Below the pieces are notes generated by a model. The model did not search any database. It was not told the origin of the DNA and was given only the letters and a program-made list of their open reading frames with translations. Positions 6,001 through 61,996 of a stretch of 64,000 nucleotides of DNA are shown one piece after another; position 1 is the stretch's first letter, and every line of letters starts with the position of its first letter. This DNA comes from Bacteroidota bacterium (lineage in GTDB: Bacteria; Bacteroidota; Bacteroidia; J057; JADKCL01): positions 48,936 to 112,935 of the forward strand of contig JANORP010000378.1 of assembly GCA_031415375.1 (NCBI GenBank). The letters are read 5' to 3'. A program made the translations under genes and the position numbers.

Positions 6001-9000
6001 TCAAGTGACAACTGCACCGCAACAGGTGCTTTGGGCTTGGCCTTGTCCACGACCACATTTACCTGCGCACAGTTGGGTGCCAATACAGTCACGCTCACTG
6101 TGACCGATGCCGCTGCACGCACGGGCACCTGCTCTGCAACCGTGACGGTGACCGATGCCATCCTCCCGATCATCGCTTGCCCATCCAATGCCACGTCCAA
6201 CAATACCACCGGCCAATGCGCCGCAGTGGTGACCTACACCGCAGCATCTGCGATCGACAATTGTACACCCGTCGTGACCCAAACCGCAGGCTTGGCAAGC
6301 GGTGCGAGCTTCCCTGTGGGCGTCACCACCAATACCTTCAGGGCTACCGATGCAGCAGGCAACACGGCCACCTGCTCGTTTACAGTGACCGTGACCGACA
6401 TCCAAGTGCCTGCGATCACCTGCCCTGCCAATACCAGCGTGAGCAATGGCGTAGGTTTGTGTGCTGCCACGGTGAGCTACACCTCACCTATCGGCACAGA
6501 CAACTGCCCTAGCCCTGCCACGACGCAGACCGCAGGCTTGGCCAGCGGTGCTACCTTCCCGATCGGTGCCACCACCAATACCTTTAGGGTTACCGATGCA
6601 GCTGGCAACACGGCCACTTGTGCGTTCACCGTCACGGTGACCGACAACCAAGTGCCCACGATCACATGCCCAACCAACATCAGCGTGAACAATGGCGCTG
6701 GCCTTTGTGCTGCCATCGTGACCTACACCTCACCTGTCGGCATAGACAACTGCCCTAGCCCTGTCACGACGCTCACCGCAGGTTTGGCCAGCGGTGCCAG
6801 CTTCCCTGTCGGTGTCACCACCAATACGTTTAGGGCCACCGATGCGGCTAGCAACACAGCTACTTGTTCCTTCACGGTCACCGTGGTGGACAATACGCTG
6901 CCCACGATCACTTGCCCAGCCAACATCACAGCCAACAACGGCGTGGGTCTCTGTGCTGCCATCGTGACATACGCTGCGCCTATCGGTGCCGACAACTGTA
7001 CGCCCACCACGACCCAAACCGCAGGTTTGGCCAGCGGTGCCAGCTACCCTGTCGGTGTCACTACCAATACCTTCCGTGTCACCGATGCAGCTAGCAACTC
7101 GGCAACTTGTTCCTTCACGGTCACCGTGGTGGACAATACATTGCCTACGATCACTTGCCCAGCCAACATCAGCGTGAACAACGCATCTGGTCTGTGTGCT
7201 GCAACCGTGACATACGCTGCCCCAGTCGGTGCCGACAACTGTACGCCCACCACGACCCAGACCGCAGGTTTGGCCAGCGGTGCCAGCTTCCCTGTCGGTG
7301 TCACCACCAATACCTTCCGCGTCACCGATGCGGCTAGCAACTCGGCGACCTGCTCATTTACCGTCACAGTCGTGGACAATCAGCTCCCAGGCATCACCTG
7401 CCCCGCCAATATCAGTGTGAGTGCGAGTGTGGGTCTGTGTGCAGCAACGGCGACTTATACCGCACCAGTCGGCACCGACAACTGTGCATTGCCGACCATT
7501 ACACAGACCGCAGGCTTGGCCAGCGGCGCAAGCTTCCCTGTCGGTGTCACCACCAACACGTTCCGTGCGACCGATGCAGCAAGCAACTCTGCAACCTGCT
7601 CGTTCACCGTGACCGTGAGTGACAACCAGCTGCCACAGATCACCTGCCCTGCAAACGTGGTCGTCGGCAACGACGTGGGCGTCTGCGGTGCCATCGTGAC
7701 CTTTGCCGCCCCAGTCGGCACCGACAACTGCTCTGCAACGACTGCACTCATCAGCGGCAACGCCAGTGGCACGCCATTCACCGTCGGCACGAGCACTGTG
7801 ACCTTCAGGGCTACTGATGCCGCCGGCAACTCTGCCACGTGTAGCTTCACAGTGACCGTCAACGACACCGAAGCCCCGACTTGGGCTGCTTGCCCAGCCA
7901 ACAGGACTGTCTCCACCTCAACCAACAGCTGCGATGCGATCGTGAGCTGGACTGTGCCTACGGCTGCAGACCAGTGTTCCGTTCCCACGACCTCGACGAC
8001 GCATACCTCTGGTAGCACATTTGTCCTTGGCACCACCACCGTCATCTACAGTGCCGTCGATGCTGCCGGCAACACCGCAACTTGCACCTTCACCGTGACC
8101 GTCAACGACAGCGTGGCCCCAACGGCCCTCTGCCAAGGCGTTACCGTGACGCTTGATGCTGCTGGAAATGGCAGCACCACGAGCAATGCTGTGAACAACG
8201 GTAGCACCGACAATTGCGCCATCGACACAGTGGTCCTGAGCCAGACAGCCTTTACATGTGCCGATGCAGGTGTGAACACAGTCACCCTCATCGTGACCGA
8301 TGCCGCTGGCAACACAAGCACTTGCACCGCAATCGTGACCGTCGTGGCACCTGCCGTCACGGGCACTGCGATTGCCGACACCACGACTTGCGGCTACAAC
8401 ATCTCTTGCAACGGCGGCACCGACGGTGTGGCTACAGCAGCAGGTGCTGGTGGATGCCCATCCTATACCTACCTCTGGAGCAACAATGCCAACACTGCGA
8501 CCGTCACAGGTCTTGCAGCCGGCACCTATACCGTGACGATCACGGATGGTGCAGGTGGTCTTGTCGTCAAGACAGTGACCCTCACGCAGCCAGCTGCCAT
8601 TACCGCGACAGCGGTGGCCACGTCGTCTTGTGCTGGTGACTCGACTGGAGCTGTTAATCTCACACCTGCGGGTGGCAATGATTGCCTTGGTTATACCTTC
8701 CTCTGGAGCAATGGCGCCACGACCGAAGATCTGAGCAACGTTCCTGCGGGCACCTATACCGTGACCGTGACCGACGCAAATGCTTGCACAGGTACACAGA
8801 CCGTGACGGTCGGTGCATTTGCTGCACTCAACCCCACGATCTCCAATGTCGGCAACCTGCTGAGCTCGGTACAAGTGTGGACGAGCTACCAATGGTTGCT
8901 CAATGGCAATACCATCCCTGGAGCCACTGCCAGCGGCTACACTGCCACAGCTACGGGCAGCTACTCCTTGCTGGTGACGGATGCCAATGGCTGTACAGCA

Positions 9001-9303
9001 GTGACCGACACCCTGAACGTGACCCTCGTGGGCATCAGCGATCCCGCGCTCGGGTTCATTGGCCTCTCGATCTATCCCAACCCTGCCCGTGGTGAATTCA
9101 AGTTGCTCACCGAGCAGCCCATCACGCAGAGCCTTACCGTGAGCATCTTTGACATGTATGGCCACCGCTTCACGCAGCAGTACATGCCATCGCTCGGCCA
9201 TGAGGTCGCCTTTGACATCAATGGCTACTCAGCTGGCAACTATCTTGTAGAGGTCGTCTCCAAGACTGGCCATCGCAAGGTGTTCAAGCTGGTCGTGCAA
9301 TAA
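1..9303 (+). CDS. Giant T9SS-secreted surface adhesin, 5'-partial (>3,100 aa): parallel beta-helix region, NIDO-like segment, 6 Ig-like repeats, 8 HYR domains, SprB repeats, T9SS C-terminal domain
   Basis: The track ORF 52..9303 starts at GTG, but the same frame stays open back to nt 1, so the gene probably continues upstream. The N-terminal ~900 aa carry beta-helix turn motifs (NNMIRLG, HNSIYIGG, QDNIFYNA). 'LPFSFTYFGTAYNSISVGTNGYVSF' is NIDO-like. Six 91-aa units follow the pattern 'VNPxLTPSVSI..C.G..VTFTA..NGG.TP.YQWK.NG'. Eight ~81-aa HYR units follow 'P.ITCP.N......G.CAA.VTY..P.G.DNC.....QTAGLASG.SFPVG.TTNTFR.TDA.GN.ATCSFTVTV.D'. SprB-type units read 'CNGGTDG..YTYLWSNNA..TVTGLAAGTYTVTITD'. 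The tail 'LSIYPNPARGEFKLL...HRKVFKLVVQ' is a T9SS CTD. Confidence 0.9.
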   Translation, partial: LAAGNGTGSTASVAGIIVSNSSSNHTITGNTIAVIGNLNPASTGQVCGIVFSGSTSGTNLINRNTIHSLIVQGAGATLNGISVIGGTNTFANNMIRLGIDPTGAAFTFGCAINGVSETTGTDNFYHNSIYIGGAGVAGATNTFAFNSTVTTNVRNFQDNIFYNARSNGAGTGKHYAMRVGGSAANPAGLTSNYNLLFANGTGGFVGLFNALDQATIAAWRLATGQDNNSLNLDPNFVLPTGNALTGDLHIASPTPIESNGTNIVAVTDDIDGQTRSGLSPVDIGADAGNFTASIDLTAPSILYTVLPGTCLTGDRTLIATITDASGVPTTGLLQPRIYFRKNASPYVSSQGVLTTGTGTNGTWTFTISAAALGGVAAGDLVSYYVIAQDIAGPFIAASPGAGLVATDVNTVTTPPTSPNSYSVNFNLNGTYTVGATGNFATLTAAVSAYNSGCLAGPVLFNLIDANYPSETFPIVIGSNPAASAVNTLTIKPTVTTTITGSNANSIITMSGADYVTIDGSIGNTPNTVCPLSATTRNLTITNTLSSSSPAVVWLATTAGGNAVTNCTVQNCVIVGQGSTTTQIGLGAGGPTISNTSTGTGNNNLAFVNNDIRACQFGIYSSGANATTKNQSLVVNQNLMTATAPNNVGISGIFITFSNDITVSGNTVSNLLNSSSSDLSAINLGFASTGGLLVSTTGTADGVSNATITSNTIGTVQQSGTFSAAGIALGNTISGTSLIANNMIYGVSANSTPSDFVAGIALGGGTGAINVFHNSVWMQGTITGASAATSVSACLAVTASSAPTGLNIRNNVFHNTQVGNTSSTMRFVAIGYQFAAPFTTVNSNYNDFFSAGTGPGTYFIGTTGGLSGGTTAATLAAWQTATSGDANSVNVAPVFVSATDLHAIPVSNVGISNMGTNVAAVTTDVDCATRNASTPDIGADEFDIPACAGTPTPGTAAVSVASICQGLSTTLNLTGFTTGVGGISFQWQIATVPGGPYTNIGGATTSTFVYTGAPVGTNYIVCNVTCANGGASALSNEVLLTVTPTPVTSVTPTTGLICNPGGTPVLLTASSTGGTGLVNFTWNPTVGLAPTSGSPVTANPAANTVYTVTGTDAAGCFSTATATISLAAKVTIDNISATPSTICAGNTSALSVAASIAFSSNYAVSTVPFAPIASGTGTTTLCSAGTANTALTSGSLDDGNWNGLALPFSFTYFGTAYNSISVGTNGYVSFTSIGTTTGYNNTPQIPNATAPNNMIAGCFGDLYWTTGGTISTYTSGTAPNRIYVINFDGGILGGFYNLGSAPTAFTTFQIQLFESNNTIQVQTTLVNSDATRLHTMGIENVGGTAGFTASGRDNALWSLTNNGTQFTPLGTFTYAWTPALGLTPSAAFANPTTPALATTTPYNVTVTDAQGCAATGSVTVTVNPVLVPAVSITAAPGSTICTGDNVTFTAASTNAGATPIYVWKKNGSAVGTNSTTYSDNALANGDLITCDLTSNALCAAPTSVTSNTITMIVNPIVTPTVSIAVAPSATICAGDNVTFTATPVNGGATPVYQWKKNGSAVGLNTVTYTDNALTNGDAITCEVTSNAPCPSIATVTSNSIVMVVNPVLTPSVSIVAAPGTTICDGDNVTFTATPVNGGTIPAYQWKLNGTDIGTNSNTYTDNTLANGDVITCVLTSNAVCAAPIMVTSNALTMTVNPILTPSVSIAAAPSTVICAGTSVTFSATVVNGGTTPTYQWKLNGSNDGTNSATYANAALSNGDVITCEVTSNATCAVPTMATSNALTMTVNPVLAPTLSISANPGTSICAGTNITFTAVAVNGGSTPTYQWRLNGGAVGTNSDTYSNALLGSGDLITCEITSSDPCSSPTFVVSNTLTISAVTNTVPTVTISASPGQTICPGTSATFTAVPNNAGITPSYQWKLNSSNVGTNSATYTNGGLTTGDVVTCVVTSSDPCALPITATSNAITMTVADLTNPIAVCQPVTIALNGSGNASTTASTVNNGSSDNCTATGALGLALSTTTFTCAQLGANTVTLTVTDAAARTGTCSATVTVTDAILPIIACPSNATSNNTTGQCAAVVTYTAASAIDNCTPVVTQTAGLASGASFPVGVTTNTFRATDAAGNTATCSFTVTVTDIQVPAITCPANTSVSNGVGLCAATVSYTSPIGTDNCPSPATTQTAGLASGATFPIGATTNTFRVTDAAGNTATCAFTVTVTDNQVPTITCPTNISVNNGAGLCAAIVTYTSPVGIDNCPSPVTTLTAGLASGASFPVGVTTNTFRATDAASNTATCSFTVTVVDNTLPTITCPANITANNGVGLCAAIVTYAAPIGADNCTPTTTQTAGLASGASYPVGVTTNTFRVTDAASNSATCSFTVTVVDNTLPTITCPANISVNNASGLCAATVTYAAPVGADNCTPTTTQTAGLASGASFPVGVTTNTFRVTDAASNSATCSFTVTVVDNQLPGITCPANISVSASVGLCAATATYTAPVGTDNCALPTITQTAGLASGASFPVGVTTNTFRATDAASNSATCSFTVTVSDNQLPQITCPANVVVGNDVGVCGAIVTFAAPVGTDNCSATTALISGNASGTPFTVGTSTVTFRATDAAGNSATCSFTVTVNDTEAPTWAACPANRTVSTSTNSCDAIVSWTVPTAADQCSVPTTSTTHTSGSTFVLGTTTVIYSAVDAAGNTATCTFTVTVNDSVAPTALCQGVTVTLDAAGNGSTTSNAVNNGSTDNCAIDTVVLSQTAFTCADAGVNTVTLIVTDAAGNTSTCTAIVTVVAPAVTGTAIADTTTCGYNISCNGGTDGVATAAGAGGCPSYTYLWSNNANTATVTGLAAGTYTVTITDGAGGLVVKTVTLTQPAAITATAVATSSCAGDSTGAVNLTPAGGNDCLGYTFLWSNGATTEDLSNVPAGTYTVTVTDANACTGTQTVTVGAFAALNPTISNVGNLLSSVQVWTSYQWLLNGNTIPGATASGYTATATGSYSLLVTDANGCTAVTDTLNVTLVGISDPALGFIGLSIYPNPARGEFKLLTEQPITQSLTVSIFDMYGHRFTQQYMPSLGHEVAFDINGYSAGNYLVEVVSKTGHRKVFKLVVQ
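4261..5898 (+). repeat. Six tandem 273-bp coding repeats (91-aa Ig-like modules) inside the adhesin gene
   Basis: Unit starts were read at 4261, 4534, 4807, 5080, 5353 and 5626. Each begins with GTSAAYCC (VNP.) and contains YQWK/YVWK. Confidence 0.85.
6157..8109 (+). repeat. Eight tandem ~243-bp coding repeats (HYR modules) inside the adhesin gene
   Basis: The protein shows an 81-aa periodicity. The track shows matching antisense ORFs at 243-bp spacing (6234..6470, 6477..6716, 6723..7010). Units at ~6890-7130 and ~7133-7375 are roughly 90% identical at the DNA level by eye. Confidence 0.85.
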
Positions 9304-9328
9304 GCGCGACCCGCTTGCTATGAAACTG

Positions 9329-9364
9329 AAGAGGCCCTGCATGCAAATGCGGGGCCTCTTTGTT
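9329..9364 (+). terminator. Rho-independent terminator after the adhesin gene
   Basis: The stem AAGAGGCCC (9329-9337) pairs with GGGCCTCTT (9352-9360) and is followed by TGTT. It lies 26 nt after the stop codon. Confidence 0.6.
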
Positions 9365-9447
9365 GGTGGATAGGGATCTGTTTTGCTTTTCAGCATTTCA
9401 TGCCAACGGTTCCTTTTGCAAGGCTTGCTTCCAGAAGGATCAGTCGG

Positions 9448-11256
9448 CTATTTGAACTTTTGCGCTGCCAGCGGCGTCCAAAATTCAAAGGCCCTGAAAC
9501 CAGGCTTTATCGTCGTGGGCAGTGCATTGCGGTACCGCTTGTCGATCAAAAGGCGTGACTGGGGCGCAAAAAGGGGTAGCATGGGCAATTGTGCGAGCCA
9601 GAGCGCCTCAAATTTGTGGTAAAGGGGCACACGGTCACTGGCGGAGATCGTTTGCCGAATCTGATCGATGAGTGCATCGGTCGTCGTGTCGCCAAATCCA
9701 AAGAAATTCATTCCGCCATTGGCCCAATTCTCGGATGCCCAGAGCTGTTCCAAATCTGTGGGAAGTGGACTCCCTGAGATGCCATTGATCACCATGTCGA
9801 AATCATGGTCGCGCATGCGGTCATTGAGCGTCGCAAAAACGAGGGGATTGGGCGTGATCAACATGCCGACTTTGATGGCTTGGTCGGCAAGCATGCGTGC
9901 AATGCTTGCACCCGATTCACTGGCGTTGGAAAACAACAATTCGATTTCCAATTTCAGTCGTTTGCCCTGGACCATCTTGTCGCGCAGGCCGTCGGCATCG
10001 CTGTCGATCCATCCCGCCTCATCCAGCAAGGCTTTCGCCTTTCCAGGATCGAAGGCATAGCCTTGCAGCTTGGGATCCAATTCGTCGGTCTTCAAGGGAG
10101 AGATGCAGCTGATTTGGGGCGTGCCAAAACCGTTGTACACTTTGGCAATGATCGTTTGGATGTCTGTAAGGTGGGCGACTGCCTTGCGCACCCTCACATC
10201 CTCCAGTACAGGCCTGCGACCCACGCTGGGCTTGCAGTTGAAGCCCAAGTACAGCAATGTGTAGGTCGTAGGGGTGTGGAAATAAAAATGCTTGGCGATG
10301 GACCCGGCAGTGTCCTCGCGGGCTGCAATGAAATCATCAGGTGGCAGGTCCTGCACCACGTCCAATTCGCCGTTGCGGGCAGCTGCCAAGAACGTGGATT
10401 TATCCTTGATTGTCTTGAAGATCAACTTCTGTGCATAGCACTGGAACACATAACCCTTGCCGCGCAGCTGATCACCCCACCAATTTTGTTTGCGCACCAG
10501 CGTCACATTGTCACCTGGCGTCCAGCTCTCGACCTTGTAGGCGCCAGCACCATACATATAAGCTGGGTCAGTTGCATATTTGTCACTGTTGAAGCCCTCG
10601 AAAAAAGCCACCATCGCAGGGTCTTTGGCTAGTTCCGCAGCCTGGGTTGTAAAGTCAGCGACGCTGTAGCGGCCCAATACATCAAGCGAATCAAAAAACT
10701 TGCGGGAGAGGATGTCAAAGTCGGCGATGAAGGTTTCCCCCAAGAAGAACGGCTCCGAAGTGACGACTGTGAAGCGGCGGTCATTTTGCGGATCGACCTG
10801 CACATCGGAAATGAACGCATAGATGCTCCGCATTTGCGCATTGTCGGTGAGCGAATTCTTCATGCACTTGACCGAAAAAGCATAGTCATGTCCCGTGATC
10901 GGGTCGCCATGGTCCCAGCGAGCCTCGGGCCGCATTTCGTAAGTGAAGCGCAACCCATCCGCAGAGATCTGAGCAGGACCCGTCACCAAAGCCGGCTCAG
11001 ACTGCAAGGTCTGCGCATTGTAAGTCGCCAAGCTCAGGTGCATATTCTCCTTGATCGCCGTCGCAGGCCCTGTTCGGGAGCTGTAAGGCGCCAACCCATC
11101 GGGGTCGCTGCTGTGGTTGATCCTGATCCAGTCTCCATTGACAGGCAGACTGTCTTGGGCCTCAGGATCGGTGGTCGTGGAGGCTGGACGGCAGGCTGTG
11201 AGGGCTGCGGTGCAGAGGAGAAAGCAATAAAAACTGTAGAAGAAATGCCTTTTCAT
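9448..11256 (-). CDS. ABC transporter substrate-binding lipoprotein, family 5 (OppA/DppA-like peptide binding)
   Basis: 602-aa ORF. The signal and lipobox read 'FLLCTAALTAC'. The length and motifs such as 'RKAVAHLTDIQTIIAKVYNGFGTP' are typical of the SBP_bac_5 family. Confidence 0.75.
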   Translation of the reverse strand: MKRHFFYSFYCFLLCTAALTACRPASTTTDPEAQDSLPVNGDWIRINHSSDPDGLAPYSSRTGPATAIKENMHLSLATYNAQTLQSEPALVTGPAQISADGLRFTYEMRPEARWDHGDPITGHDYAFSVKCMKNSLTDNAQMRSIYAFISDVQVDPQNDRRFTVVTSEPFFLGETFIADFDILSRKFFDSLDVLGRYSVADFTTQAAELAKDPAMVAFFEGFNSDKYATDPAYMYGAGAYKVESWTPGDNVTLVRKQNWWGDQLRGKGYVFQCYAQKLIFKTIKDKSTFLAAARNGELDVVQDLPPDDFIAAREDTAGSIAKHFYFHTPTTYTLLYLGFNCKPSVGRRPVLEDVRVRKAVAHLTDIQTIIAKVYNGFGTPQISCISPLKTDELDPKLQGYAFDPGKAKALLDEAGWIDSDADGLRDKMVQGKRLKLEIELLFSNASESGASIARMLADQAIKVGMLITPNPLVFATLNDRMRDHDFDMVINGISGSPLPTDLEQLWASENWANGGMNFFGFGDTTTDALIDQIRQTISASDRVPLYHKFEALWLAQLPMLPLFAPQSRLLIDKRYRNALPTTIKPGFRAFEFWTPLAAQKFK

Positions 11257-52483: not shown

Positions 52484-53377
52484 TCAAAACAAGGTCTGGA
52501 TCCCGCTTTGACTGCTCACGTACGCCCCAAATTTGCGCATGGTCTCATAGAAATCGTCGTATTTGGGTGTGGTGCGGAGCTTTTTCATCCATTCCTCGGG
52601 AATGGCATCACTGCCCATTGCGACCCCTGCGATTTGCCCGGCGATGGAGCAATTGGTGTCGGTATCGCCACCTGCAGCCACGATTTCCTTCATCATGCTT
52701 TGAATGCCGATGGTCGGGGCCTGTTGCGCCGCAAAGAGTGCCAATGGCACTGAGTCCACGACATAGCCACTGCTGCCAAACTTCTTGCCAATGTCACGAA
52801 TGCGGAGGCCCGGATGCTGCGCGATCGCATCGAGGCGGTCGCGCACGCGGGAGTCGGGCAGTACTTTGATGATGGCAGGGATGAAATTTTGCTGCTGATT
52901 TTGAATGAGACGGATCGCCCATACCACCGCCAAGGCACCCACATAGGCATCTGCGTTGTGGTGCGTGATGCGGCACACGTTTTCCAGGAGCATGCGGTCA
53001 TCCTCCTTTTTGGGGTCGAGTAAAAACGCGAGGGGCGCGATGCGCATCGCCGCGCCATTGCCAGCCGACATCTCACCCTTGGCGCCTACTTGACTCCAAT
53101 TGCCGCCCCCAACCAACTCCACCAAAGCCTTCAAGGTCGATGCCCCAAGGCCCGTGAGCCGACGGTCGCGGTACCATCGCCGAAAGGTCTGCGAAAGGTG
53201 TTCGGGATCGACGCTGCCCTTCTCCATGATCGACTCGCAGGTCGCCATCGAGAGCTGCGTATCGTCGGTAAAAAACCACGGCGCATCGCCAGATGGGATG
53301 TCTGATTGCTCATACTTAGAGCCATAAGCGTCGCCGAGGGCTCCCATCAGCAGACAAGATTTGACCTTTTCGTCCAT
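52484..53377 (-). CDS. ADP-ribosylglycohydrolase family protein
   Basis: Family motifs present: 'GALGDAYG', 'FTDDTQL' and 'GGDTDTNCSIAGQIAG'. ATG 53377 is preferred over GTG 53395. Confidence 0.85.
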   Translation of the reverse strand: MDEKVKSCLLMGALGDAYGSKYEQSDIPSGDAPWFFTDDTQLSMATCESIMEKGSVDPEHLSQTFRRWYRDRRLTGLGASTLKALVELVGGGNWSQVGAKGEMSAGNGAAMRIAPLAFLLDPKKEDDRMLLENVCRITHHNADAYVGALAVVWAIRLIQNQQQNFIPAIIKVLPDSRVRDRLDAIAQHPGLRIRDIGKKFGSSGYVVDSVPLALFAAQQAPTIGIQSMMKEIVAAGGDTDTNCSIAGQIAGVAMGSDAIPEEWMKKLRTTPKYDDFYETMRKFGAYVSSQSGIQTLF

Positions 53378-53766
53378 TTTTTCGCGCTTCAGCACGCCAT
53401 CATAGATAAGGTGGCGCTTGAGTAGGCATCAAAAATAGCCTTCTCAACCCAGACCACATTGCCCATTTTTCCTCAAACCTTGGCGGGCCTGACCTATGGA
53501 GTAGGCGATGAGGCCTTCTCTGTCTTCAATGAATAGCTAGGAAATCAGGTTTCTAGGAACTGTCATGGGCCTTACATTGGTTGGTGAATTTTTTGTTTAA
53601 AGCTATTTTTTCGCGCCTTATACCCCTTTTAGGGCGTATTGTGATTATTTTCTTGGAGGCAAAAACTTTGTAATTACTTATATAACAATTGATTAAATAT
53701 TGTTTTTGAATCATTGATTTTCCAGCTATTTTTCAGGTACTTTGATGCGGTATTATTTTCTTAAAT

Positions 53767-53949
53767 ATGATAACTGAAAACGTGGGTCAAGTAAGCAATG
53801 AAGCGGTTGCCAGTCAATCGGCCGTCCTAGTGTTAGATGCCAAAATGGTGCCTGGTCCGGTGTTGAGGAGATTAATCGAAGAGGTAAGGCATGATCGCCA
53901 AAACAACATTACGGCCTATGATCGCCTACACAATCGTCACAATCGTTGA
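53767..53949 (+). CDS. Candidate RiPP precursor peptide (60 aa, or 34 aa from Met27)
   Basis: MITENVGQVSNEAVASQSAVLVLDAKMVPGPVLRRLIEEVRHDRQNNITAYDRLHNRHNR. Its stop codon overlaps the first possible start of the radical SAM gene. A 370-bp AT-rich region lies upstream. Confidence 0.55.
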   Translation: MITENVGQVSNEAVASQSAVLVLDAKMVPGPVLRRLIEEVRHDRQNNITAYDRLHNRHNR

Positions 53950-55100
53950 TTGCTGTGGATGAGGAATGCACTCGGGTGGATTTAGATACTGTGCTACTGA
54001 AAGTTGCGAGTCGGTGCAACATTGATTGTACCTATTGTTACGTGTACCAAATGGGTGATGATCAGTGGACTCGTCTGGGTAAATTTATGTCCAATGAGAC
54101 AATTGAGGCCGTATGCACTTCACTTCAAGCTCTTTCAAAAAGTCAAGCTTCCCGATTTAGCGTTGTACTTCATGGTGGGGAACCGCTCCTTCTAGGAGCC
54201 TCAAGGTTGAAATACCTATTGGAGTCTTTGCGAAATGTTTTGCCTTTGGAGTATCCGATTAGCATCCAGACAAATGGGATCTTGATCACGACCGAGCTTT
54301 TGGATATTTGTTCCACCTTTCGTGCTAGCTTGTCGGTGAGCATCGATGGACCAAGGCAGCTCCACGATGCTCAGAGAATTAAGTTTGATGGTGGCGGTAC
54401 TTTTGATGAAGTTTTGCGTGGGATCGAGATGCTCGAGTCACACTCAGATGCCTTGTTTTTATATGCAGGGCTTTTGGCGGTAGTTGACCCTTGCTCGGAC
54501 CCTCAAGAGGTGTACACCTTCTTCAAAACAATCGGAGCGCCAAGCGTGGACTTCCTCTATAAGGATGGAAACCATTGCAGACTGCCCCTTTCCAAGGCCT
54601 TTTTCGAGTCAGTTGAATACGGCTCATGGATGGCTAGCCTCTTCAACATTTACATTTCCGACCCAGATCCGATCCGTATCCGCATTTTGGATGATATGAC
54701 AAAAGCAATCTTGGGTGGCCTCATCTCCAAGGAAGGAATGGGCGTTTCAGATTTTGGAATCCTCATCATCGATACTGATGGGACGATTGCCAAAAATGAT
54801 ACATTGAAAAGCTCCTTCAATGGTGCGGATCGGTTTTCCGTTTCTCGGAATATCAGGGATACTGTCTTGGGTGAATTTTTGAAATCCGACGAGTTTCAAG
54901 CTTACCGCCGCATGCAACGGCCATCTTGCCTTCAGTGTTCTCTTTGCCCGGAATTGAAAGTCTGCGGCGGAGGGATGACCTTGCATCGTTGGAGCGATGA
55001 CAATGCTTTCAACAATCCTTCAATTTACTGCTCTGATCAGCTTTACCTGATCGGAATGATTCGGCAGCAACTTGCTCAATATCAGATTGTTTATGCCTGA
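53946..55100 (+). CDS. Radical SAM/SPASM-domain peptide maturase (FxsB-like)
   Basis: 'RCNIDCTYCY' is the CX3CX2C cluster. The C-terminal 'CLQCSLCPELKVCGGG...IYCSDQ' is a SPASM-type auxiliary-cluster motif. The start is TTG 53946 or GTG 53955. Confidence 0.85.
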   Translation: MIAVDEECTRVDLDTVLLKVASRCNIDCTYCYVYQMGDDQWTRLGKFMSNETIEAVCTSLQALSKSQASRFSVVLHGGEPLLLGASRLKYLLESLRNVLPLEYPISIQTNGILITTELLDICSTFRASLSVSIDGPRQLHDAQRIKFDGGGTFDEVLRGIEMLESHSDALFLYAGLLAVVDPCSDPQEVYTFFKTIGAPSVDFLYKDGNHCRLPLSKAFFESVEYGSWMASLFNIYISDPDPIRIRILDDMTKAILGGLISKEGMGVSDFGILIIDTDGTIAKNDTLKSSFNGADRFSVSRNIRDTVLGEFLKSDEFQAYRRMQRPSCLQCSLCPELKVCGGGMTLHRWSDDNAFNNPSIYCSDQLYLIGMIRQQLAQYQIVYA

Positions 55101-55686
55101 AACCTCTTGCATTGATTTTTCCAAGATTCAACGGGAAAGCAATCCATTTAGTCATTTCTACCTGACCTCTGTGTTACGAGAGCATCTGGACAAAGAACTC
55201 TTCGAATGGTTGGAGCAGACTGACGCTTGGCAATCAGTCGAAACCGATTTTTATGAACAGTATGAGTTTTCGCTTCAAAGTGTCGCGCTTCCAGCTCGCT
55301 TGTCTTGCCTCGTAGCCGAGAAGACGATTCGGGAAACACGGCAAACAATGCAGGAGATATTTTTGGTAGAGAAGCTTGATTTGGTGGGAATTGTTGCGCA
55401 CAAATTGGTAGAAGGACAGCACATTGGAATTCACAACGACTTCATTGAGGGTGAAGAGACGCATCGCCTAGTGATACAGATCAACCCCCATTGGACCGAA
55501 AGCAATGGTGGGTACCTCATGTTATTCAACTCTCAGGACGTGGAGGATGTTTCAAAAGTGATCTCCCCGATCAACAATACTGCCTTTGGCTTTGAAATAT
55601 CAAAGGATTCTCACCACGCAGTTTCCAAAATCTATGGCCTCCCTAGGTACAGCATTGTCTACACGTTCCGGTTGCGCGACAAATGA
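55093..55686 (+). CDS. 2OG-Fe(II) oxygenase superfamily protein (prolyl-4-hydroxylase-like)
   Basis: 'HIGIHNDF' is the HxD motif, 'GGYLMLF' follows, 'SHHAVSKI' supplies the distal His, and 'PRYSIVYTF' supplies the Arg. ATG 55093 overlaps the rSAM stop by 8 nt. Confidence 0.75.
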   Translation: MPETSCIDFSKIQRESNPFSHFYLTSVLREHLDKELFEWLEQTDAWQSVETDFYEQYEFSLQSVALPARLSCLVAEKTIRETRQTMQEIFLVEKLDLVGIVAHKLVEGQHIGIHNDFIEGEETHRLVIQINPHWTESNGGYLMLFNSQDVEDVSKVISPINNTAFGFEISKDSHHAVSKIYGLPRYSIVYTFRLRDK

Positions 55687-56537
55687 ACCTTACCCAGTTG
55701 ATCCATCGATATCTCGCAGCCCCTTTTCCTATTTGGAACCTTGAGCTGACAGAAACGCTAGTCCAGAAAAAATGGATGGAATTGGAAGGAATCGAAATTC
55801 AAAGCCGAGAGAACTACTCTACAGCTGCTAGCTATCATCAAAAAGGGATGTCTGTAGGAGTCAGATCGCAACTACAGCATGCTAGCCAACCAAAAATGTA
55901 CCAGGAAGCCCCAAATGCTGAACTGCTTGGTGTCTTCTATGACAAACATGGACTAGAGCTACTGAGTGAGCAGGATTTGAAGGAAAGTGATGCGATCGTT
56001 AAGCTTGAGGAGTCAATCGCGATGCTAGATTTGGTGCCGCATCTTGGCGCTTGTGTGGCCCTTTTGGTGAGGTCAATACAAGTTTTGAAGCAAGAGGGTC
56101 CTCAGACTGACCTCAGTTACAGTCATCCAAAGATTCCTTTCTCGATTTTCGTTTCGGTTTGTGAGGATCGCTCCATGATATCTACACTGCGTGTAGCAGA
56201 GTCCATTCTTCATGAAGCGATGCACCTATTTCTCACGCTCATAGAGGATGAGGCCCCTCTGGTGAAGGATGACGCTATTGGGAAGTTCTATTCTCCATGG
56301 AAGCACGAAAACAGGAATGCGCGGGGAATTTTGCACGGAGCTTTCGTTTTTAGGGCCATTTGGGAGTTTTGCGAGCGTTTGCGCAATGATGACCTTGCCC
56401 CCCAAGAAAAGAAGTATGTGATCAACCGTCAAACGACGATTTCAGAAGAACTGTCGTTACTGCCAGAGTTTAGTGACAATTCGGACCTCACTAGAGATGG
56501 GGCCACCCTGATAGCAAGTCTATTGCCATTGAGCTGA
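55683..56537 (+). CDS. HExxH-motif peptide-modification protein (aKG-HExxH / TIGR04267-like)
   Basis: Contains 'ESILHEAMHLFLTLIED'. An ATGA overlap joins it to the upstream oxygenase gene. The ~280-aa size and the position next to an rSAM/SPASM gene fit the family. Confidence 0.7.
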   Translation: MNLTQLIHRYLAAPFPIWNLELTETLVQKKWMELEGIEIQSRENYSTAASYHQKGMSVGVRSQLQHASQPKMYQEAPNAELLGVFYDKHGLELLSEQDLKESDAIVKLEESIAMLDLVPHLGACVALLVRSIQVLKQEGPQTDLSYSHPKIPFSIFVSVCEDRSMISTLRVAESILHEAMHLFLTLIEDEAPLVKDDAIGKFYSPWKHENRNARGILHGAFVFRAIWEFCERLRNDDLAPQEKKYVINRQTTISEELSLLPEFSDNSDLTRDGATLIASLLPLS

Positions 56538-57240
56538 ACTCGGATTCTGGCTTCATTGATTGCAGCAAACCAATTCTGGTAGGCAAAATTATCGGATCGT
56601 CTTTATCGATATGAAATCGAGCAAGAAGCGCTTCGATCCACTGCATCTCCTTCAAAAGTCTAAAATGGAGCCTTTGACGAGCAATTACGAAGCTCTCATC
56701 ACGTAACCCTAGAATCTTAATGGTTTGGCGACCTCGAAAAGTCCTGCCTTCAATTTCCCAACCTCTAAAACGGATATGGCATCTAGGATCTTCTTTGGAT
56801 GGGTTAATGAGTATTGGCTCTTCCGCATCGGCATCATGGTGGCTCTTCATTCTCTTGGTTGAATCAACCAATGGAAAGAAGTTCCTTTTCTTACTCGTGT
56901 TTGGCAACGGTTTGCAAAGCAGTAAATTCTCCCAGCTGTAAGCCAGCCAGTAGTACCCTGGAGTTAGTGATCCTCCCTTTCTCCATGGCCATTCGTCAAT
57001 TCTGCCTTTTGGACGATAGTGCTCAACGGGCGGCAAATCTCCAACGAAGTAGGCCTCGCTGAAACAACATTTGTTGTGCTGACAATGCTTCAATGCTTCG
57101 ACAACGGCTTTGATCTTATAGGTACGATAAAACTTAAGTTTTCTGCCTCCTTTGTCGTATTCCAATTTCAACTCATCAGTTCTTGGCTTGCCCAATTTTT
57201 CCAATTTTGGTGGACACGGGTCTTTGAATATTTGGATCAT
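56491..57240 (-). CDS. ptuB: Septu PtuB-like HNH nuclease (TIGR02646-like)
   Basis: 'NKCCFSEAYFVGDLPPVEHYRPKG' and 'YSWENLLLCKPLPNTSKKRNFFP' align with the HNH core (His, then Asn). An ATGA overlap at 57237-57240 joins it to the upstream ATPase gene. Confidence 0.65.
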   Translation of the reverse strand: MIQIFKDPCPPKLEKLGKPRTDELKLEYDKGGRKLKFYRTYKIKAVVEALKHCQHNKCCFSEAYFVGDLPPVEHYRPKGRIDEWPWRKGGSLTPGYYWLAYSWENLLLCKPLPNTSKKRNFFPLVDSTKRMKSHHDADAEEPILINPSKEDPRCHIRFRGWEIEGRTFRGRQTIKILGLRDESFVIARQRLHFRLLKEMQWIEALLARFHIDKDDPIILPTRIGLLQSMKPESEFSSMAIDLLSGWPHL

Positions 57241-58652
57241 TTCATTAGCCCTCGTGCTTTGAGTTGTTCTGTGGCAGCTTGGATTTGATCCAAAAATCGC
57301 TGATCCTCTTCGTTTTCGGCTACAGGAATTTCGACAAGTAATCTATCTAGTTCATCCAACCGAAGTCGATCCTCATCCGTTTTCGTATCCTGGTCAAGAA
57401 TTTCCCGCCGCTCCTGAATTAAACCCTCAATCTCGGGGCTTCTGTCACTCCCAAGTCCAAAAAGCTCACCTGTCGCAAACAGTCCAATGCGGCCACCTTT
57501 GATGACATACGGCTCACTGTCAATGATCACAACCCCGTCTTCTCGTCTAAGCACAACTAGGTTCTCCGACTCGGACGCCTGAGCCATAAAGGGGCTATGG
57601 GCAGTGCAGATAAATTGAGTATTCTTGAAATGATGTACCAATTTCTTTTTGAGCGATCGTTGCCAAGATGGATGCAAATGCAGATCAATCTCATCTACCA
57701 AGACAACAGCTGGCTCGTTAAGTGGCGAATCGCTATCACGATTTCGGAGTAACATTCGAAACGCGAGGTCGGCAATCCATGCAAACATGGTTTGATAACC
57801 AAGGCTGAGGGCTTGAAAGGGAACTAGCCCACTCGGCATCGCAATCTCCACCAATCGATCGTTTCGTTTGCCCTCCTTATAATATTCATTGACCGTTATT
57901 TTCTCTGGCGTTCCATCAAGATCTGGTAATAGGTCTGATAATACCTCTTTAACCTTCATGAAAAATCTTGTCGCTGGACCTTCTTCAGTGGTTCTAACTC
58001 TTTCGGCATTCGAATCGGAAAACAACTTGTAAAGTAGGTCCTCGGGATCAAACAACTCGTTGGAATTGGTTAACAGATTGGAGGCAGAGTCTTTGAGTAA
58101 TATTTCGCTTTCAAGATTGTTTACGCCTAAATGTCTATTTGCTGCGTAGGCAAATACATTCATGGACCCAAATTCAAGCAATTCCCCTGGATTCACGTCA
58201 TACTTTTCAAGTTCCCAGTTTTCAATTTCGAAAGAAATGGAATGCTCAGTTTGTTCTTTGTCAGTTGGTATTTCCCCAAGTCCGACGCCAAAGGACAGTG
58301 ATGATCCCACAAACGACTTGACAGTTGCCCCCACCATTGCAATTCTTTCCCAATCAGAATTGTTAGCCAGAACTTCGTCCATTTCTGGTTTTATCTTGAC
58401 GGGGCCTGAGTTAATTTTGGGGCCTGCGCTGTCACCGTCCTTCTTTGGTAACGCCTCAACGTCTGGCCTCATCCATGCCAAACACTTCAACAACGTCGTT
58501 TTTCCCATCCCATTGTCTCCAAGGATCAGCGTCCATCTGGCGATAGCCCCTTTTTCGTCGACAAGCTTCAATTGGCTTTCGCCAAGACAGTTGATATTCT
58601 TTACCTTCAGTGAGGTAAAATACATCGGGGTCACACTATTTTTTTCGTCCAT
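57237..58652 (-). CDS. ptuA: Septu PtuA-like AAA/ABC-type ATPase
   Basis: The N-terminal 'LKVKNINCLGE...WTLILGDNGMGKTTLLKCLAW' carries the Walker A motif. 'VVLVDEIDLHLHPSWQRSL...FICTAHSPF' carries the Walker B and D-loop region, in the AAA_15/21 style. Confidence 0.7.
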   Translation of the reverse strand: MDEKNSVTPMYFTSLKVKNINCLGESQLKLVDEKGAIARWTLILGDNGMGKTTLLKCLAWMRPDVEALPKKDGDSAGPKINSGPVKIKPEMDEVLANNSDWERIAMVGATVKSFVGSSLSFGVGLGEIPTDKEQTEHSISFEIENWELEKYDVNPGELLEFGSMNVFAYAANRHLGVNNLESEILLKDSASNLLTNSNELFDPEDLLYKLFSDSNAERVRTTEEGPATRFFMKVKEVLSDLLPDLDGTPEKITVNEYYKEGKRNDRLVEIAMPSGLVPFQALSLGYQTMFAWIADLAFRMLLRNRDSDSPLNEPAVVLVDEIDLHLHPSWQRSLKKKLVHHFKNTQFICTAHSPFMAQASESENLVVLRREDGVVIIDSEPYVIKGGRIGLFATGELFGLGSDRSPEIEGLIQERREILDQDTKTDEDRLRLDELDRLLVEIPVAENEEDQRFLDQIQAATEQLKARGLMK

Positions 58653-58807
58653 GTCCTAAAATTCATTTCATAAAATGTCCCCAAGTCCCAGTTTCAACCC
58701 TGGATCGAGATGGTCGGGTTCCTTGGGAAAGATAAGAAAGTTCGGCAAATGTGCCCAATCTCAACAAAACGATTTTGTCCGCTTTTTGCCCATTCCCTCC
58801 CATCTTT

Positions 58808-58846
58808 AAAAACAAAAGACTCGGCAGCGCATTACGCACTGCCGAG
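58808..58846 (-). terminator. Rho-independent terminator of infB
   Basis: The stem CTCGGCAG (58820-58827) pairs with CTGCCGAG (58839-58846). On the minus strand it is followed by TCTTTTGTTTTT. It lies 22 nt after the infB stop. Confidence 0.7.
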
Positions 58847-58867
58847 ACTCCATAAGTTTCAGCGCAA

Positions 58868-61800
58868 TTACTTGAGCTTCCTGGCGACTTCCGTCGTCTT
58901 GAATTGCTCGATCACGTCGCCGATTTCGATGTCGTTGTAATTGTCGATCTGCATACCGCAGTCAAAACCACGCTTGACCTCACGCACGTCGTCTTTGAAG
59001 CGCTTGAGGGATCCCAAGCGACCTTGCTGGATGACGATGCCGTTGCGGATGAGCCTGATCGGATCCTTGCGGTTGATCTCTCCGTCCACAACCATACAAC
59101 CTGCGATGGTGCCGACCTTGGTGACCTTGAAGACTTCCCTGATCTCGGCGGTGCCGGTGATCTCTTCTCTCTTCTCGGGGGTGAGCAAGCCTTCGAGGGC
59201 GTCACGCACTTGGTTGATGGCGTCGTAGATGATGGAGTACAGACGGATGTCGATGCCCTCTGTGTCGGCCAATTTCTTGGCGTTGATGCTGGGACGCACT
59301 TGGAAGCCGATGATGATGGCATCTGATGCGGTTGCCAGCAAGACGTCGGCCTCTGTGATCTGACCCACAGCCTTGTGAATCACTTTCACGGCCACCTCGC
59401 CTTGGGAGAGCTTGAGCAAGGAGTCGCTGAGCGCCTCGACCGAGCCGTCCACGTCGCCTTTCACGATGATGTTCAATTCGCGGAAGTCGCCCAATGCCTT
59501 GCGGCGTGCCACTTCCTCGAGCGTAGGACGCTTGTTTTGACGCAATTGCTGCTCACGGTAGAGCTCGCTGCGGCGCACGGCGATGTCTTTGGCTTTGCGC
59601 TCGTCTTCATAGACGACAAAGCGGTCACCAGCTTGGGGCGTGCCCGACAGGCCGACCAATTGCACTGGTGTCGAGGGGCCGACTTTTTTCACGCGGTTGC
59701 CGCGCTCATCCATCATGGCCCTCACACGACCGAAGTGTACGCCTGCCACGAGGGAGTCGCCGACTTCGAGTGTGCCGTCTTGTACCAGCACGGTCGCTAC
59801 CACACCACGACCTTTGTCGAGACGTGCCTCGACGACGGTGCCGCTGGCAGACTTGTTTGGATTGGCTTTGACATCGAGCATCTCGGCTTCGAGCAACACT
59901 TTCTCCAACAATTCAGGAATACCTTTTCCGGTCTTGGCGCTGATCTCTTGGCACTGGAACTTGCCGCCCCAGTCTTCCACCAAGATGTTCATTTCGCTCA
60001 ATTTCAAACGAATGTGCTCGGAGTTGGCACCCGGCTTGTCCATCTTGTTGATGGCAAAGACCATGGGAACACCTGCGGCCTCGGCATGGTTGATGGCCTC
60101 ACGCGTCTGAGGCATGATGCTATCGTCTGCCGCGATCACGATGATCACCAAGTCAGTGACTTTGGCACCACGCGCACGCATAGCTGTAAAGGCTTCGTGA
60201 CCAGGGGTATCGAGGAAGCAAATGCGCTTGCCATCGTCGTTGGTCACCTCATAAGCACCGATGTGCTGGGTGATACCACCGGCCTCACCCGCCACGATAT
60301 TGGCCTTGCGGATGTAGTCTAGCAAGGAGGTCTTACCGTGGTCCACGTGACCCATGACCGTAATGATCGGGGCGCGTGACTCAAGATCTGCAGGATCGTC
60401 GGCGTCGATCTCTGAATCTTCAAATGCTTTGTCGGCGATGTCGATGAAGCGTACTTCAAAGTCATATTCCCCGGCGAGCAGCTGGATCACGTCGGCTTCC
60501 AAACGCTGGTTGATGGACACAAAGAGGCCCAACTCCATACATTTACCAATGATCTCAGTCACTGGGATGTCCATCATGTTAGCCAATTCATTGGCGGTGA
60601 TGAACTCGGTGACCTCCAAGATGCTGGCTTCGTCGGCCCGCAATTGCGCTTCGTTCTCACGTTTACGAGCATCGGAGTCCCTTTTACCTCTCCTCAGACG
60701 CTGGCGTGAGCGCCCTGCGCCTTTGCGCATGTCTGCGAGTGTGCTTTTGATGATGTCGCTGATCTCTTTTTCAGAGGCGTCATCTTTCTTCTTCTTATCA
60801 GCGGCAGTGACTGGCGTGTTGGGCCCGCGTTTGACCGGAGCTCCTGTATTAGGTCTGCCTGTCTGTGGCGTGCCAGGCTTGGCCGGCGTGGTGCCCGTCT
60901 GCCCGGGTGTAGTGCCTGGCAATCCTGCTGGCTTTTTCCGCTTGCGTTTGCGTTTGCGCTTTTTCTTGTCGGCATCGTCGCCCGACTCGTCGGTCGTGGC
61001 GGGAGTGCCGCTTGCTGCTGCACCAGCTGTAAGCTTGGGCTTGGGCTTCTTGCCTGAGAGCGCATCAAGGTCGATTTTACCTTTGACGATAAGACCGGCC
61101 AATTTGGGGGAGTGATCGGAGGCTCTTACGACAGCATTTTCGACTTCGACCTCTGCTTCAGGGGCGACTGCCACGGGTGGCACCACGATGAGAGGCGCTG
61201 AGACCACCACGGGTGGCTGCTCTGCGACGACTTCGTGCACGACCTCTACAGGCTTTTGTTGCGGCACTTCGATCTTGGGTTGCTCCACGATGGGGGCTTC
61301 GACCTTGACCTCTGGCTGCTCTACCTTGGGAGTTTCGACAACTTTGACTTCCTCAACGACGACGGGCTTTTCGACGACGACCGGCTGCTCGACCACGATT
61401 GGTGCGACCACTACTGGTGCAACCACAGGTTCGGCGATGGGTGTGACGACTGGGGCTACCTCGATCGGCGTGACGACTGCCTCGACGACAGGTTCAGAAA
61501 CCTTGGCGACGGGAGTTTCGACGACTTTTGCTTCTGGCTCCTCTTTGGGCTTGGGTTTCCTGCCCGAGAGTGCATCCAGATCGATCATCCCTTTGACCTT
61601 GAGGCCTGGCACACGTGCGCTGAGTTCCTCTTTGACCACTTCTGCCGGCTTATCGACGACAGTATCACCTTTTTGGGCTGACTTGGGATGATCAAGATAC
61701 CCTTTGCGCAATTGCTCGGCCGACAACGGTTCTTCGTCGTCCTGCTCTGGGGAATCTTCACGGTGCAGACGTTTTTCCTGCTTGGCTTCCTTGATTTGAT

Positions 61801-61996
61801 CGACCTTTTGCTTCAGTATTTTTTCTGAGGCAAACTCTTTCATCAAGACGTTGTACATCTCATCGCTGAGCTTCTCATTGGGGGAATTGGTGACGGTAAA
61901 GCCCTTAGCCGCCAAGTGATCCACCAATGTTAGGCTCCCTGTATTGAGCTCTTTGGCTACCTTAAAAAGACGATGTTTCTGTTTCTCTTCTGACAT
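58868..61996 (-). CDS. infB: Translation initiation factor IF-2
   Basis: GTPase motifs are 'GHVDHGKTSLLD', 'DTPGH' and 'NKMD'. The C-terminal IF-2 domains are conserved. The N-terminal region is long and low in complexity. Confidence 0.95.
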   Translation of the reverse strand: MSEEKQKHRLFKVAKELNTGSLTLVDHLAAKGFTVTNSPNEKLSDEMYNVLMKEFASEKILKQKVDQIKEAKQEKRLHREDSPEQDDEEPLSAEQLRKGYLDHPKSAQKGDTVVDKPAEVVKEELSARVPGLKVKGMIDLDALSGRKPKPKEEPEAKVVETPVAKVSEPVVEAVVTPIEVAPVVTPIAEPVVAPVVVAPIVVEQPVVVEKPVVVEEVKVVETPKVEQPEVKVEAPIVEQPKIEVPQQKPVEVVHEVVAEQPPVVVSAPLIVVPPVAVAPEAEVEVENAVVRASDHSPKLAGLIVKGKIDLDALSGKKPKPKLTAGAAASGTPATTDESGDDADKKKRKRKRKRKKPAGLPGTTPGQTGTTPAKPGTPQTGRPNTGAPVKRGPNTPVTAADKKKKDDASEKEISDIIKSTLADMRKGAGRSRQRLRRGKRDSDARKRENEAQLRADEASILEVTEFITANELANMMDIPVTEIIGKCMELGLFVSINQRLEADVIQLLAGEYDFEVRFIDIADKAFEDSEIDADDPADLESRAPIITVMGHVDHGKTSLLDYIRKANIVAGEAGGITQHIGAYEVTNDDGKRICFLDTPGHEAFTAMRARGAKVTDLVIIVIAADDSIMPQTREAINHAEAAGVPMVFAINKMDKPGANSEHIRLKLSEMNILVEDWGGKFQCQEISAKTGKGIPELLEKVLLEAEMLDVKANPNKSASGTVVEARLDKGRGVVATVLVQDGTLEVGDSLVAGVHFGRVRAMMDERGNRVKKVGPSTPVQLVGLSGTPQAGDRFVVYEDERKAKDIAVRRSELYREQQLRQNKRPTLEEVARRKALGDFRELNIIVKGDVDGSVEALSDSLLKLSQGEVAVKVIHKAVGQITEADVLLATASDAIIIGFQVRPSINAKKLADTEGIDIRLYSIIYDAINQVRDALEGLLTPEKREEITGTAEIREVFKVTKVGTIAGCMVVDGEINRKDPIRLIRNGIVIQQGRLGSLKRFKDDVREVKRGFDCGMQIDNYNDIEIGDVIEQFKTTEVARKLK

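Follow-up and report, generated by a model that had tools for sequence, protein, structure and literature searches.

A predicted YhhA-type triceptide operon adjoins a Septu gene pair in a Bacteroidota bacterium and in related loci

Triceptides are defined by a crosslink from an aromatic residue to a Cβ carbon on aromatic1-X2-X3 motifs (PMC11499958). In a 64,000-nucleotide stretch of the genome of a Bacteroidota bacterium (contig JANORP010000378.1 of assembly GCA_031415375.1, hereafter the window), a small open reading frame (ORF), yhhA, ends in three such motifs, Tyr-Asp-Arg (YDR) followed by two copies of His-Asn-Arg (HNR). This locus raises the question of whether yhhA encodes the precursor of a modified peptide and, if so, what such a peptide might do. 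Our analysis indicates that yhhA very probably encodes the precursor of a triceptide-class RiPP (a peptide made on ribosomes and modified after translation), which would be modified by the radical S-adenosylmethionine (rSAM) enzyme YhhB, the oxygenase YhhC and an enzyme with an HExxH motif. In most related loci this yhh operon is joined to ptuA and ptuB, the gene pair of the defense system Septu, a link that hints at an unrecognized role for the operon.

The yhhA ORF opens with an ATG start codon, runs for 60 codons and closes with TGA. Its product is MITENVGQVSNEAVASQSAVLVLDAKMVPGPVLRRLIEEVRHDRQNNITAYDRLHNRHNR, with the C-terminus AYDRLHNRHNR, and the same 60-amino acid product is recorded as a called gene in an NCBI assembly (P0121). 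Against the NCBIfam equivalog model for YhhA, NF041705, the peptide scored 54.7 bits, above the curated cut-off of 36 (E = 8e-15), with residues 31-60 matching profile positions 4-33 of 33. The Tyr-Asp-Arg codons lie at 53917-53925, and the two His-Asn-Arg units form an exact 9-nt tandem repeat, CACAATCGT twice (53929-53946). The HDRQNN and YDRLHN codons are also linked, by a 16-nt imperfect repeat (53891-53933; D10). These repeats suggest that the core was derived from an internal duplication. The combination by which a triceptide is recognized, aromatic1-X2-X3 motifs beside the gene for an rSAM-type enzyme that forms three-residue cyclophanes (3-CyFE), is found here with three motifs. A preliminary description of the window had proposed YDR, HNR and HNR as the crosslink sites of an rSAM/SPASM enzyme. 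That proposal agrees with the scores of both the YhhA and the YhhB model and with the literature on YhhB, as relayed by later papers; the ORF ending, the internal Met27 and the segment PVLRRLIEEVRH that it had pointed out are all present.

The triplets taken by themselves are weak evidence for a precursor. The six-frame translation of the window contains six places where three aromatic-x-Arg triplets stand close together, and in 2 of its 1151 stop-to-stop segments such a trio is at the C-terminus. With this background, yhhA might be a chance open frame whose triplets are coincidental. The ORF nevertheless stands above chance because of its context, namely the match to the curated YhhA model and the overlap with the rSAM/SPASM gene (the yhhA stop overlaps the yhhB start by 4 nt if a TTG start is used), and because of its conservation. 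Its position upstream of yhhB is kept in every locus examined, and the motif residues are invariant despite only about 50% overall peptide identity. Conservation thus already excludes a chance frame for all practical purposes.

We assessed this conservation by scanning one genome per species, which yielded 25 loci with YhhB at 57-64% identity. Most of them are from Bacteroidota (Flavobacterium, Mucilaginibacter, Pedobacter, Chryseobacterium, Hymenobacter and Chitinophagaceae); three are from Acidobacteriota (two labelled Pyrinomonadaceae), and one is a metagenome-assembled genome (MAG) labelled Gammaproteobacteria. In each of the 25, the rSAM gene is immediately preceded by a small ORF ending in [AS]Y[DN]RxHNRHNR. 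Another 22 homologues came from searching proteins with the peptide, and one of these is named "YhhA family cyclophane-containing RiPP" by NCBI. Across an alignment of 53 distinct homologous peptides, the core residues Y51, R53, H55, R57, H58, N59 and R60 and the leader residues L33, R35, L36 and E39 are invariant, and V32, I37 and V40 of the leader are kept in at least 45 peptides, while the N-terminal 20 residues vary freely. The alignment check suggested in the preliminary description, which asked whether small ORFs upstream of related rSAM genes keep the [YH]-x-R triplets and the leader helix, therefore gave a positive result. The conserved segment PVLRRLIEEVRH is the putative binding site for YhhB. 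At position 52, Asn is found in 41 of the 53 peptides and Asp in 11, and the window peptide has Asp. Most peptides run on past the last Arg by a follower residue or two (GR, SR or S); the window peptide and six others stop exactly at that residue.

The start of the precursor was also considered, since the preliminary description had suggested that translation from Met27 would give a 34-amino acid product. Codon 27 of yhhA is indeed ATG, and the NCBIfam YhhA profile spans only the last 33 residues. However, 24 of 53 homologues have Lys at position 27, where it is the commonest residue and Met does not rank in the top three, whereas a segment just upstream (aa 21-24; three hydrophobic residues followed by Asp) is conserved. 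Homologous ORFs moreover begin 17-40 residues upstream of the VL-x-RL helix, and the recorded gene for the identical product is called at 60 amino acids. With Met27 not conserved and the residues before it conserved, the shorter precursor is very unlikely.

The core of the family can be written as YxRx[HY]xRHxR, with the order Tyr-His-His in the 53 aligned peptides and Tyr-Tyr-His in other peptides. Two precursor genes per locus were observed in the proteobacterial loci L106, L110, L111 and L112, and also in L107, L108 and L060. The proteobacterial precursor upstream of yhhB ends in YNRTHNRHNR, or in YNRTYNRHNR in L106 and L060; the second, located between yhhB and yhhC, ends in YNRTYHRHNR, a Tyr-Tyr-His variant of the core. 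One metagenome protein (P0137) has a duplicated core, ending in YDRVHNRHNRGGSYDRVHSRHNRSG, with six aromatic-x-Arg units in a single peptide.

The four yhh genes overlap or abut each other (Table 1), the start of the HExxH gene overlapping the yhhC stop by 4 nt, in a layout resembling that of a translationally coupled operon. YhhB carries a CX3CX2C motif at C24/C28/C31 and a C-terminal (SPASM) cysteine cluster at 328/331/334/340/362, and it matches the rSAM domain of the solved ChlB structure (PDB 9gm3, E = 7e-59). Its second-best model, that of FxsB (TIGR04269), gave 293.4 bits, below the cut-off of 370, and YhhB also falls under the cut-offs of the NCBIfam models for XyeB and GrrM/OscB. YhhC, a 2-oxoglutarate (2OG) oxygenase, matches Pfam 2OG-FeII_Oxy_3/4, with H121-N-D123 as its iron-binding HxD motif. 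The fourth protein belongs to the α-ketoglutarate HExxH (aKG-HExxH) enzymes; its motif reads HEAMH (aa 177-181), and it matches ChlH (PDB 8s5f, E = 8e-12) as well as TIGR04267, so that the remark on HExxH hydroxylases in the preliminary description was apt. The HExxH gene was found in every related locus with sufficient DNA, and the distances of YhhB, YhhC and the HExxH protein co-vary (Mantel r = 0.71-0.76). In a Flavihumibacter MAG (L005, 1336-2814, plus strand), YhhC and the HExxH protein form a single fused ORF of about 490 amino acids, both tblastn matches lying in one frame with no stop between them; this fusion supports the idea that the two oxygenases act together. PADLOC gave only generic rSAM and 2OG matches for the yhh genes and no dedicated model, and a scan of viral contigs with YhhB found no relative.

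Table 1. Features of the yhh-ptuAB region, in window coordinates.
Feature	Position	Strand	Description
yhhA	53767..53949	+	predicted 60-aa triceptide precursor; leader aa 1 to about 49, core aa about 50-60, no follower residues
leader recognition segment PVLRRLIEEVRH (putative)	53857-53892 (aa 31-42)	+	family motif V-L-x-R-L-I-E-E-V
core YDRLHNRHNR	53917..53946 (aa 51-60)	+	aromatic-X-Arg units Y51-D52-R53, H55-N56-R57 and H58-N59-R60
yhhB	53946..55100	+	radical SAM/SPASM three-residue cyclophane synthase; NF041707, 495.9 bits (cut-off 445)
yhhC	55072..55686	+	Fe(II)/2OG oxygenase, predicted Asp52 β-hydroxylase; NF041706, 247.4 bits (cut-off 150)
aKG-HExxH gene	55683..56537	+	discrete enzyme, predicted β-hydroxylase on the cyclised core; TIGR04267, 83.4 bits (cut-off 40)
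ptuB	56491..57240	-	Septu HNH-type nuclease; PADLOC PtuB PDLC00339, 178 bits, full length
ptuA	57237..58652	-	Septu AAA/ABC-type ATPase; PADLOC PtuA PDLC00304, 392 bits, full length
low-GC island	53396..58867		exactly six genes (yhhA, yhhB, yhhC, HExxH gene, ptuB, ptuA), from the composition profile

Published work on the family allows a biosynthetic route to be proposed. According to papers that refer to the original experiments, YhhB joins Tyr C3 to Arg Cβ and His C2 to Arg Cβ (PMC11002830), the HNR cyclophane is a YhhB product (PMC11499958), and YhhA modified by YhhB and YhhC is a source of L-erythro-β-hydroxy-Asp, with YhhC as the hydroxylase (PMC12186529). Hydroxylation by ChlH takes place at His and Asp of a peptide whose cyclophanes are already formed (PMC12636437). 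In the window, the 60-amino acid peptide would be translated from Met1, and its leader helix VLRRLIEEV would dock on YhhB, encoded immediately downstream. YhhB would then make three cyclophanes, Tyr51 C3 to Arg53 Cβ, His55 C2 to Arg57 Cβ and His58 C2 to Arg60 Cβ, each crosslink costing 2 Da, and YhhC would β-hydroxylate Asp52. The HExxH enzyme, a relative of ChlH, would most likely add further β-hydroxyls, on His or Asn of the cyclised core. The crosslink positions and types and the Asp hydroxylation are thus predicted from the published family work, and the substrate of the HExxH enzyme by analogy only.

Several points weigh against this route. The chemistry of YhhB and YhhC reaches us second-hand, from papers that cite the primary study, and YhhB of the window is assigned to the family of the characterized enzyme (WP_013448981.1) by its NF041707 profile score. 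The triceptide identity of the window peptide is predicted from its sequence. Neither yhhA nor ptuA has the TAnnTTTG promoter motif of Bacteroidota upstream, and expression is a prediction. Because Asn, not Asp, occupies X2 of the first unit in most family peptides, the residue targeted by YhhC across the family is uncertain. Finally, some aKG-HExxH enzymes cleave the peptide backbone oxidatively, instead of or besides hydroxylating it (PMC12636437).

The last point opens the possibility that the HExxH protein cleaves peptides, by oxidation or hydrolysis, and takes off the leader or the follower residues (GR, SR or S). Most family precursors do carry the one or two extra residues, often Gly-Arg, after the last Arg, and the module has no other candidate protease. 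Yet the HExxH gene is retained in the window and in the six other cases in which the peptide already ends at the last Arg. Moreover, the closest solved relative, ChlH, is a His/Asp β-hydroxylase whose cyclophane peptide substrate shares the YDR-type motif, and the NCBIfam family name for TIGR04267 is also β-hydroxylase. We therefore regard a cleaving enzyme as improbable and keep hydroxylation of the cyclised core as the predicted activity.

We next compared the operon with known systems. The closest is YhhA/YhhB/YhhC, since the precursor, the maturase and the 2OG oxygenase of the window all score above the curated cut-offs (NF041705, NF041707 and NF041706) and the core has the same Tyr-x-Arg, His-x-Arg, His-x-Arg layout from which the family name originates. 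The primary study of this system is reportedly that of Sugiyama et al. (JACS 2022). The precursor chemistry, Tyr/His-to-Arg cyclophanes, is thus not new: it was published in 2022 and is covered by NCBI annotation models. The mechanism put forward in the preliminary description is supported, but the family was already known. Its expectation of a His-containing cyclophane core unlike the FxS type is supported, though the type itself is the described YhhA one and not new. The window differs from the described system in being a new sequence, its best relatives found having 57-66% YhhB identity when an identical protein on the same contig is set aside. The aKG-HExxH enzyme and PtuAB are constant companions in the loci studied here.

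Other triceptide systems share parts of this organization. ChlA/ChlB-ChlH of Chlorogloeopsis, reportedly the work of Morishita et al. (Nat Chem 2024), resembles the window in that its ChlB rSAM domain is matched by YhhB and its ChlH by the fourth gene product. Unlike ChlB-ChlH, in which the rSAM and aKG-HExxH parts are fused, the window has two separate genes and an additional classical 2OG oxygenase, YhhC. FxsA/FxsB (FxSxx-COOH) and MscB-type Phe-x-Ser triceptides belong to the same enzyme superfamily and follow the same three-residue cyclophane logic, but the window core has no Phe-x-Ser and would instead combine Tyr/His rings with an Arg acceptor, with YhhB below the FxsB cut-off. NCBIfam lists TIR-like and TPR proteins as FxSxx-COOH partners; a literature search on the context of FxsC or FxSxx-COOH returned nothing. 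The native motif of ChlB includes YDR, and HaaB and HtkB, like YhhB, join the His imidazole C2 to the Cβ two residues on (PMC11499958). In contrast to YhhB, HaaB and HtkB use Ala or Lys as acceptor, act on one or few precursor units and fall into different maturase clusters, and neither is among the NCBIfam matches listed for the window YhhB.

The genes that face the yhh operon bear on the second question, the role of the peptide. PtuA and PtuB share full-length PADLOC matches with stand-alone Septu, and their Walker and HNH motifs are intact. Across 21 homologues of PtuB, C58, E73-H74, N105 and N114 never vary; PtuA has a Walker A motif GDNGMGKT at aa 45 and a Walker B motif VVLVDE at aa 316, with the motif residues invariant in 20 homologues. 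The two genes overlap by 4 nt. By gene content the pair can be called Septu, and protection against phage is predicted. Stand-alone Septu, consisting of PtuA and PtuB, was reportedly introduced by Doron et al. in 2018. The ptuB gene is convergent with the yhh operon, and its 3' end shares 47 nt of coding sequence with the HExxH gene (56491-56537). Of 20 convergent loci, 16 have such a coding overlap, which ranges from 4 to 80 nt and is most often 47-50 nt. Through it, the two halves of the module could interfere with one another by antisense or transcriptional means.

The linkage between the two operons is widespread. Among the genome loci, 22 reach far enough to be judged, and in 20 of these PtuB and PtuA homologues adjoin the yhh operon. 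A second YhhB branch, 48-50% identical to the window YhhB, comprises Mesorhizobium opportunistum CP002279.1, Sphingobium sp. JAI105, a Halieaceae MAG and others, and the PtuAB pair was present in all seven loci added to the survey (six of this branch and one from Bacteroidota). Of the 30 loci in total that were selected solely by YhhB, 28 showed PtuAB adjacency, across Bacteroidota, Acidobacteriota and Proteobacteria and at YhhB identities of 47-64%. An all-against-all comparison of 25 loci showed that only the six module families are common to more than a few loci. Flanking genes are unique to each locus, save in a few closely related ones such as the Acidobacteriota L017, L018 and L021, and the same comparison found no protease, exporter or immunity gene conserved with the operon. 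The arrangement is convergent in most loci, but ptuAB lies on the same strand downstream in L009, on the same strand upstream in L027 and L111, and divergently in L033 and L037. In Sphingobium sp. JAI105 (L110, 1-2983), the module stands beside a type I restriction S subunit and another AAA_21 ATPase, a defense-island setting.

We also approached the linkage from the side of PtuA. We scanned metagenomes with a PtuA alignment and took the best 80 of more than 553 matches as further loci, and a neighbor-joining distance tree was built from 56 near-full-length PtuA proteins, which are ascertained samples. A locus was scored as lacking yhh genes when tblastn with the window proteins gave no match at E ≤ 1e-4 and at least 1.5 kb of flank was available on both sides. 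All 26 yhh-adjacent PtuA proteins fell in one clade (bootstrap 173/200 for the split), whose only other members come from two contigs too short to judge. Conversely, the 12 assessable PtuAB loci without yhh genes within 1.5 kb all lie outside this clade. The clade has no specific insert in PtuA that might serve as a peptide-binding element, its only signature being the residues W60, N179, D202 and M356. PtuA and PtuB distances correlate strongly (Mantel r = 0.86), and those between yhh and ptuAB genes do so more weakly but significantly (r = 0.26-0.49, p ≤ 0.006). This pattern fits two operons that are kept together and sometimes re-assorted among modules of the same kind.

A precedent exists for PtuAB serving another module. 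In retron Ec78, PtuAB is an effector sequestered by msDNA (a single-stranded DNA present in many copies) and the reverse transcriptase, and retron-linked PtuA has diverged from stand-alone Septu (PMC12819146). Retron Ec78/Eco7 resembles the yhh-linked systems in that PtuAB is permanently tied to a non-Septu module making a small non-protein-like product and in that the linked PtuA forms its own lineage (PMC12819146). In the yhh-linked systems, by contrast, the partner module would make a modified peptide and not msDNA, any interaction is hypothetical here, and the gene order is usually convergent and not that of a single operon. In the literature searched, we found no paper tying Septu or PtuAB to triceptides, radical SAM, 2OG or HExxH peptide-modifying enzymes, which is not proof of novelty.

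Two accounts of the linkage have to be weighed. By the first, which we put only slightly short of an even chance, the six genes form one unit, a distinct Septu lineage with a peptide-modification module comparable to retron Ec78, and the peptide stays inside the cell and acts on PtuAB or as a second effector. The peptide, which may be a rigid, Arg/His-rich, hydroxylated tri-cyclophane, might act on PtuAB as a ligand that sequesters or inhibits it, as a sensor that is no longer supplied once infection sets in, or as a cofactor. By the second, a serious alternative to which we give somewhat less than an even chance, the cell secretes the peptide as a free natural product with a bioactivity such as antimicrobial action, and the Septu pair is a passenger on the same mobile island with no interplay between the two.

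A secreted product would agree with the general treatment of characterized RiPP cyclophanes as natural products, and with the two of the 30 loci in which the yhh operon stands without PtuAB. In L018, a 653-amino acid Sel1-repeat/DUF2971 protein with a weak PADLOC PDC-S31 match takes the place of PtuAB (7782-9743, minus strand); in L012, a 274-amino acid unknown protein and an HlyD-family secretion protein are encoded nearby (8166-10419, minus strand). The yhh-ptuAB distance correlation is also weak compared with those within the two halves (0.71-0.86), integrases flank some modules, and the window copy lies in a low-GC island, so co-transfer on defense islands is a live alternative to joint function. 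Against a mere passenger stand the persistence of the adjacency in at least three phyla, amid unrelated flanks and through at least four relative arrangements, and the restriction of yhh-linked PtuA to one clade, with yhh genes in none of the 12 assessable loci outside it. Given the deep divergence, the unrelated flanks and the several rearrangements, the adjacency seems unlikely to have been retained neutrally; it is explained more simply by selection, either for joint transfer or for joint function. The lack of a conserved protease, exporter or immunity gene would not be usual in a secreted antimicrobial system and agrees with a product that stays inside the cell. Taken with the near-constant joining to PtuAB, this makes a cytoplasmic, Septu-tied role about as likely as a free secreted product. 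Whether the modified peptide works with PtuAB thus comes close to an even call.

In the window, the six genes coincide with an island whose guanine-plus-cytosine (GC) content is about 0.40-0.48, compared with 0.53-0.59 in both flanks. The island is bordered by an ADP-ribosylglycohydrolase gene on one side and infB (58868..61996) on the other. Its borders showed neither a tRNA nor convincing flanking repeats, direct or inverted, and the window contains no integrase; integrases flank the module in L108, L109 and L111. The ADP-ribosylglycohydrolase gene (52484..53395, minus strand) was considered as a part of the system and rejected, as it lies outside the island and has a homologue in none of the 25 related loci; it is probably unrelated to the module. 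Its product weakly matches ADP-ribosyl-arginine hydrolases, it adjoins a gene for an Arg-rich peptide, and an ADP-ribosylated triceptide exists.

Taken alone, the window precursor adds little, being one more member of a described family. The YhhA family is, however, larger and more uniform than its single characterized example suggests, with a shared core, a shared leader helix and a discrete HExxH enzyme, and its interest goes beyond that of known-family membership through the partnership with Septu, the fourth enzyme seen throughout and the variant precursors. To our knowledge, no triceptide has a known biological function. The near-obligate and phylogenetically coherent link to Septu provides a concrete and genetically testable hypothesis for one. 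If it is true, a biological role would for the first time be known for a triceptide, a nuclease-based defense system would for the first time be seen to include a peptide natural product, and the principle of retron Ec78, in which the PtuAB effector is borrowed by another module, would extend to peptide natural products.

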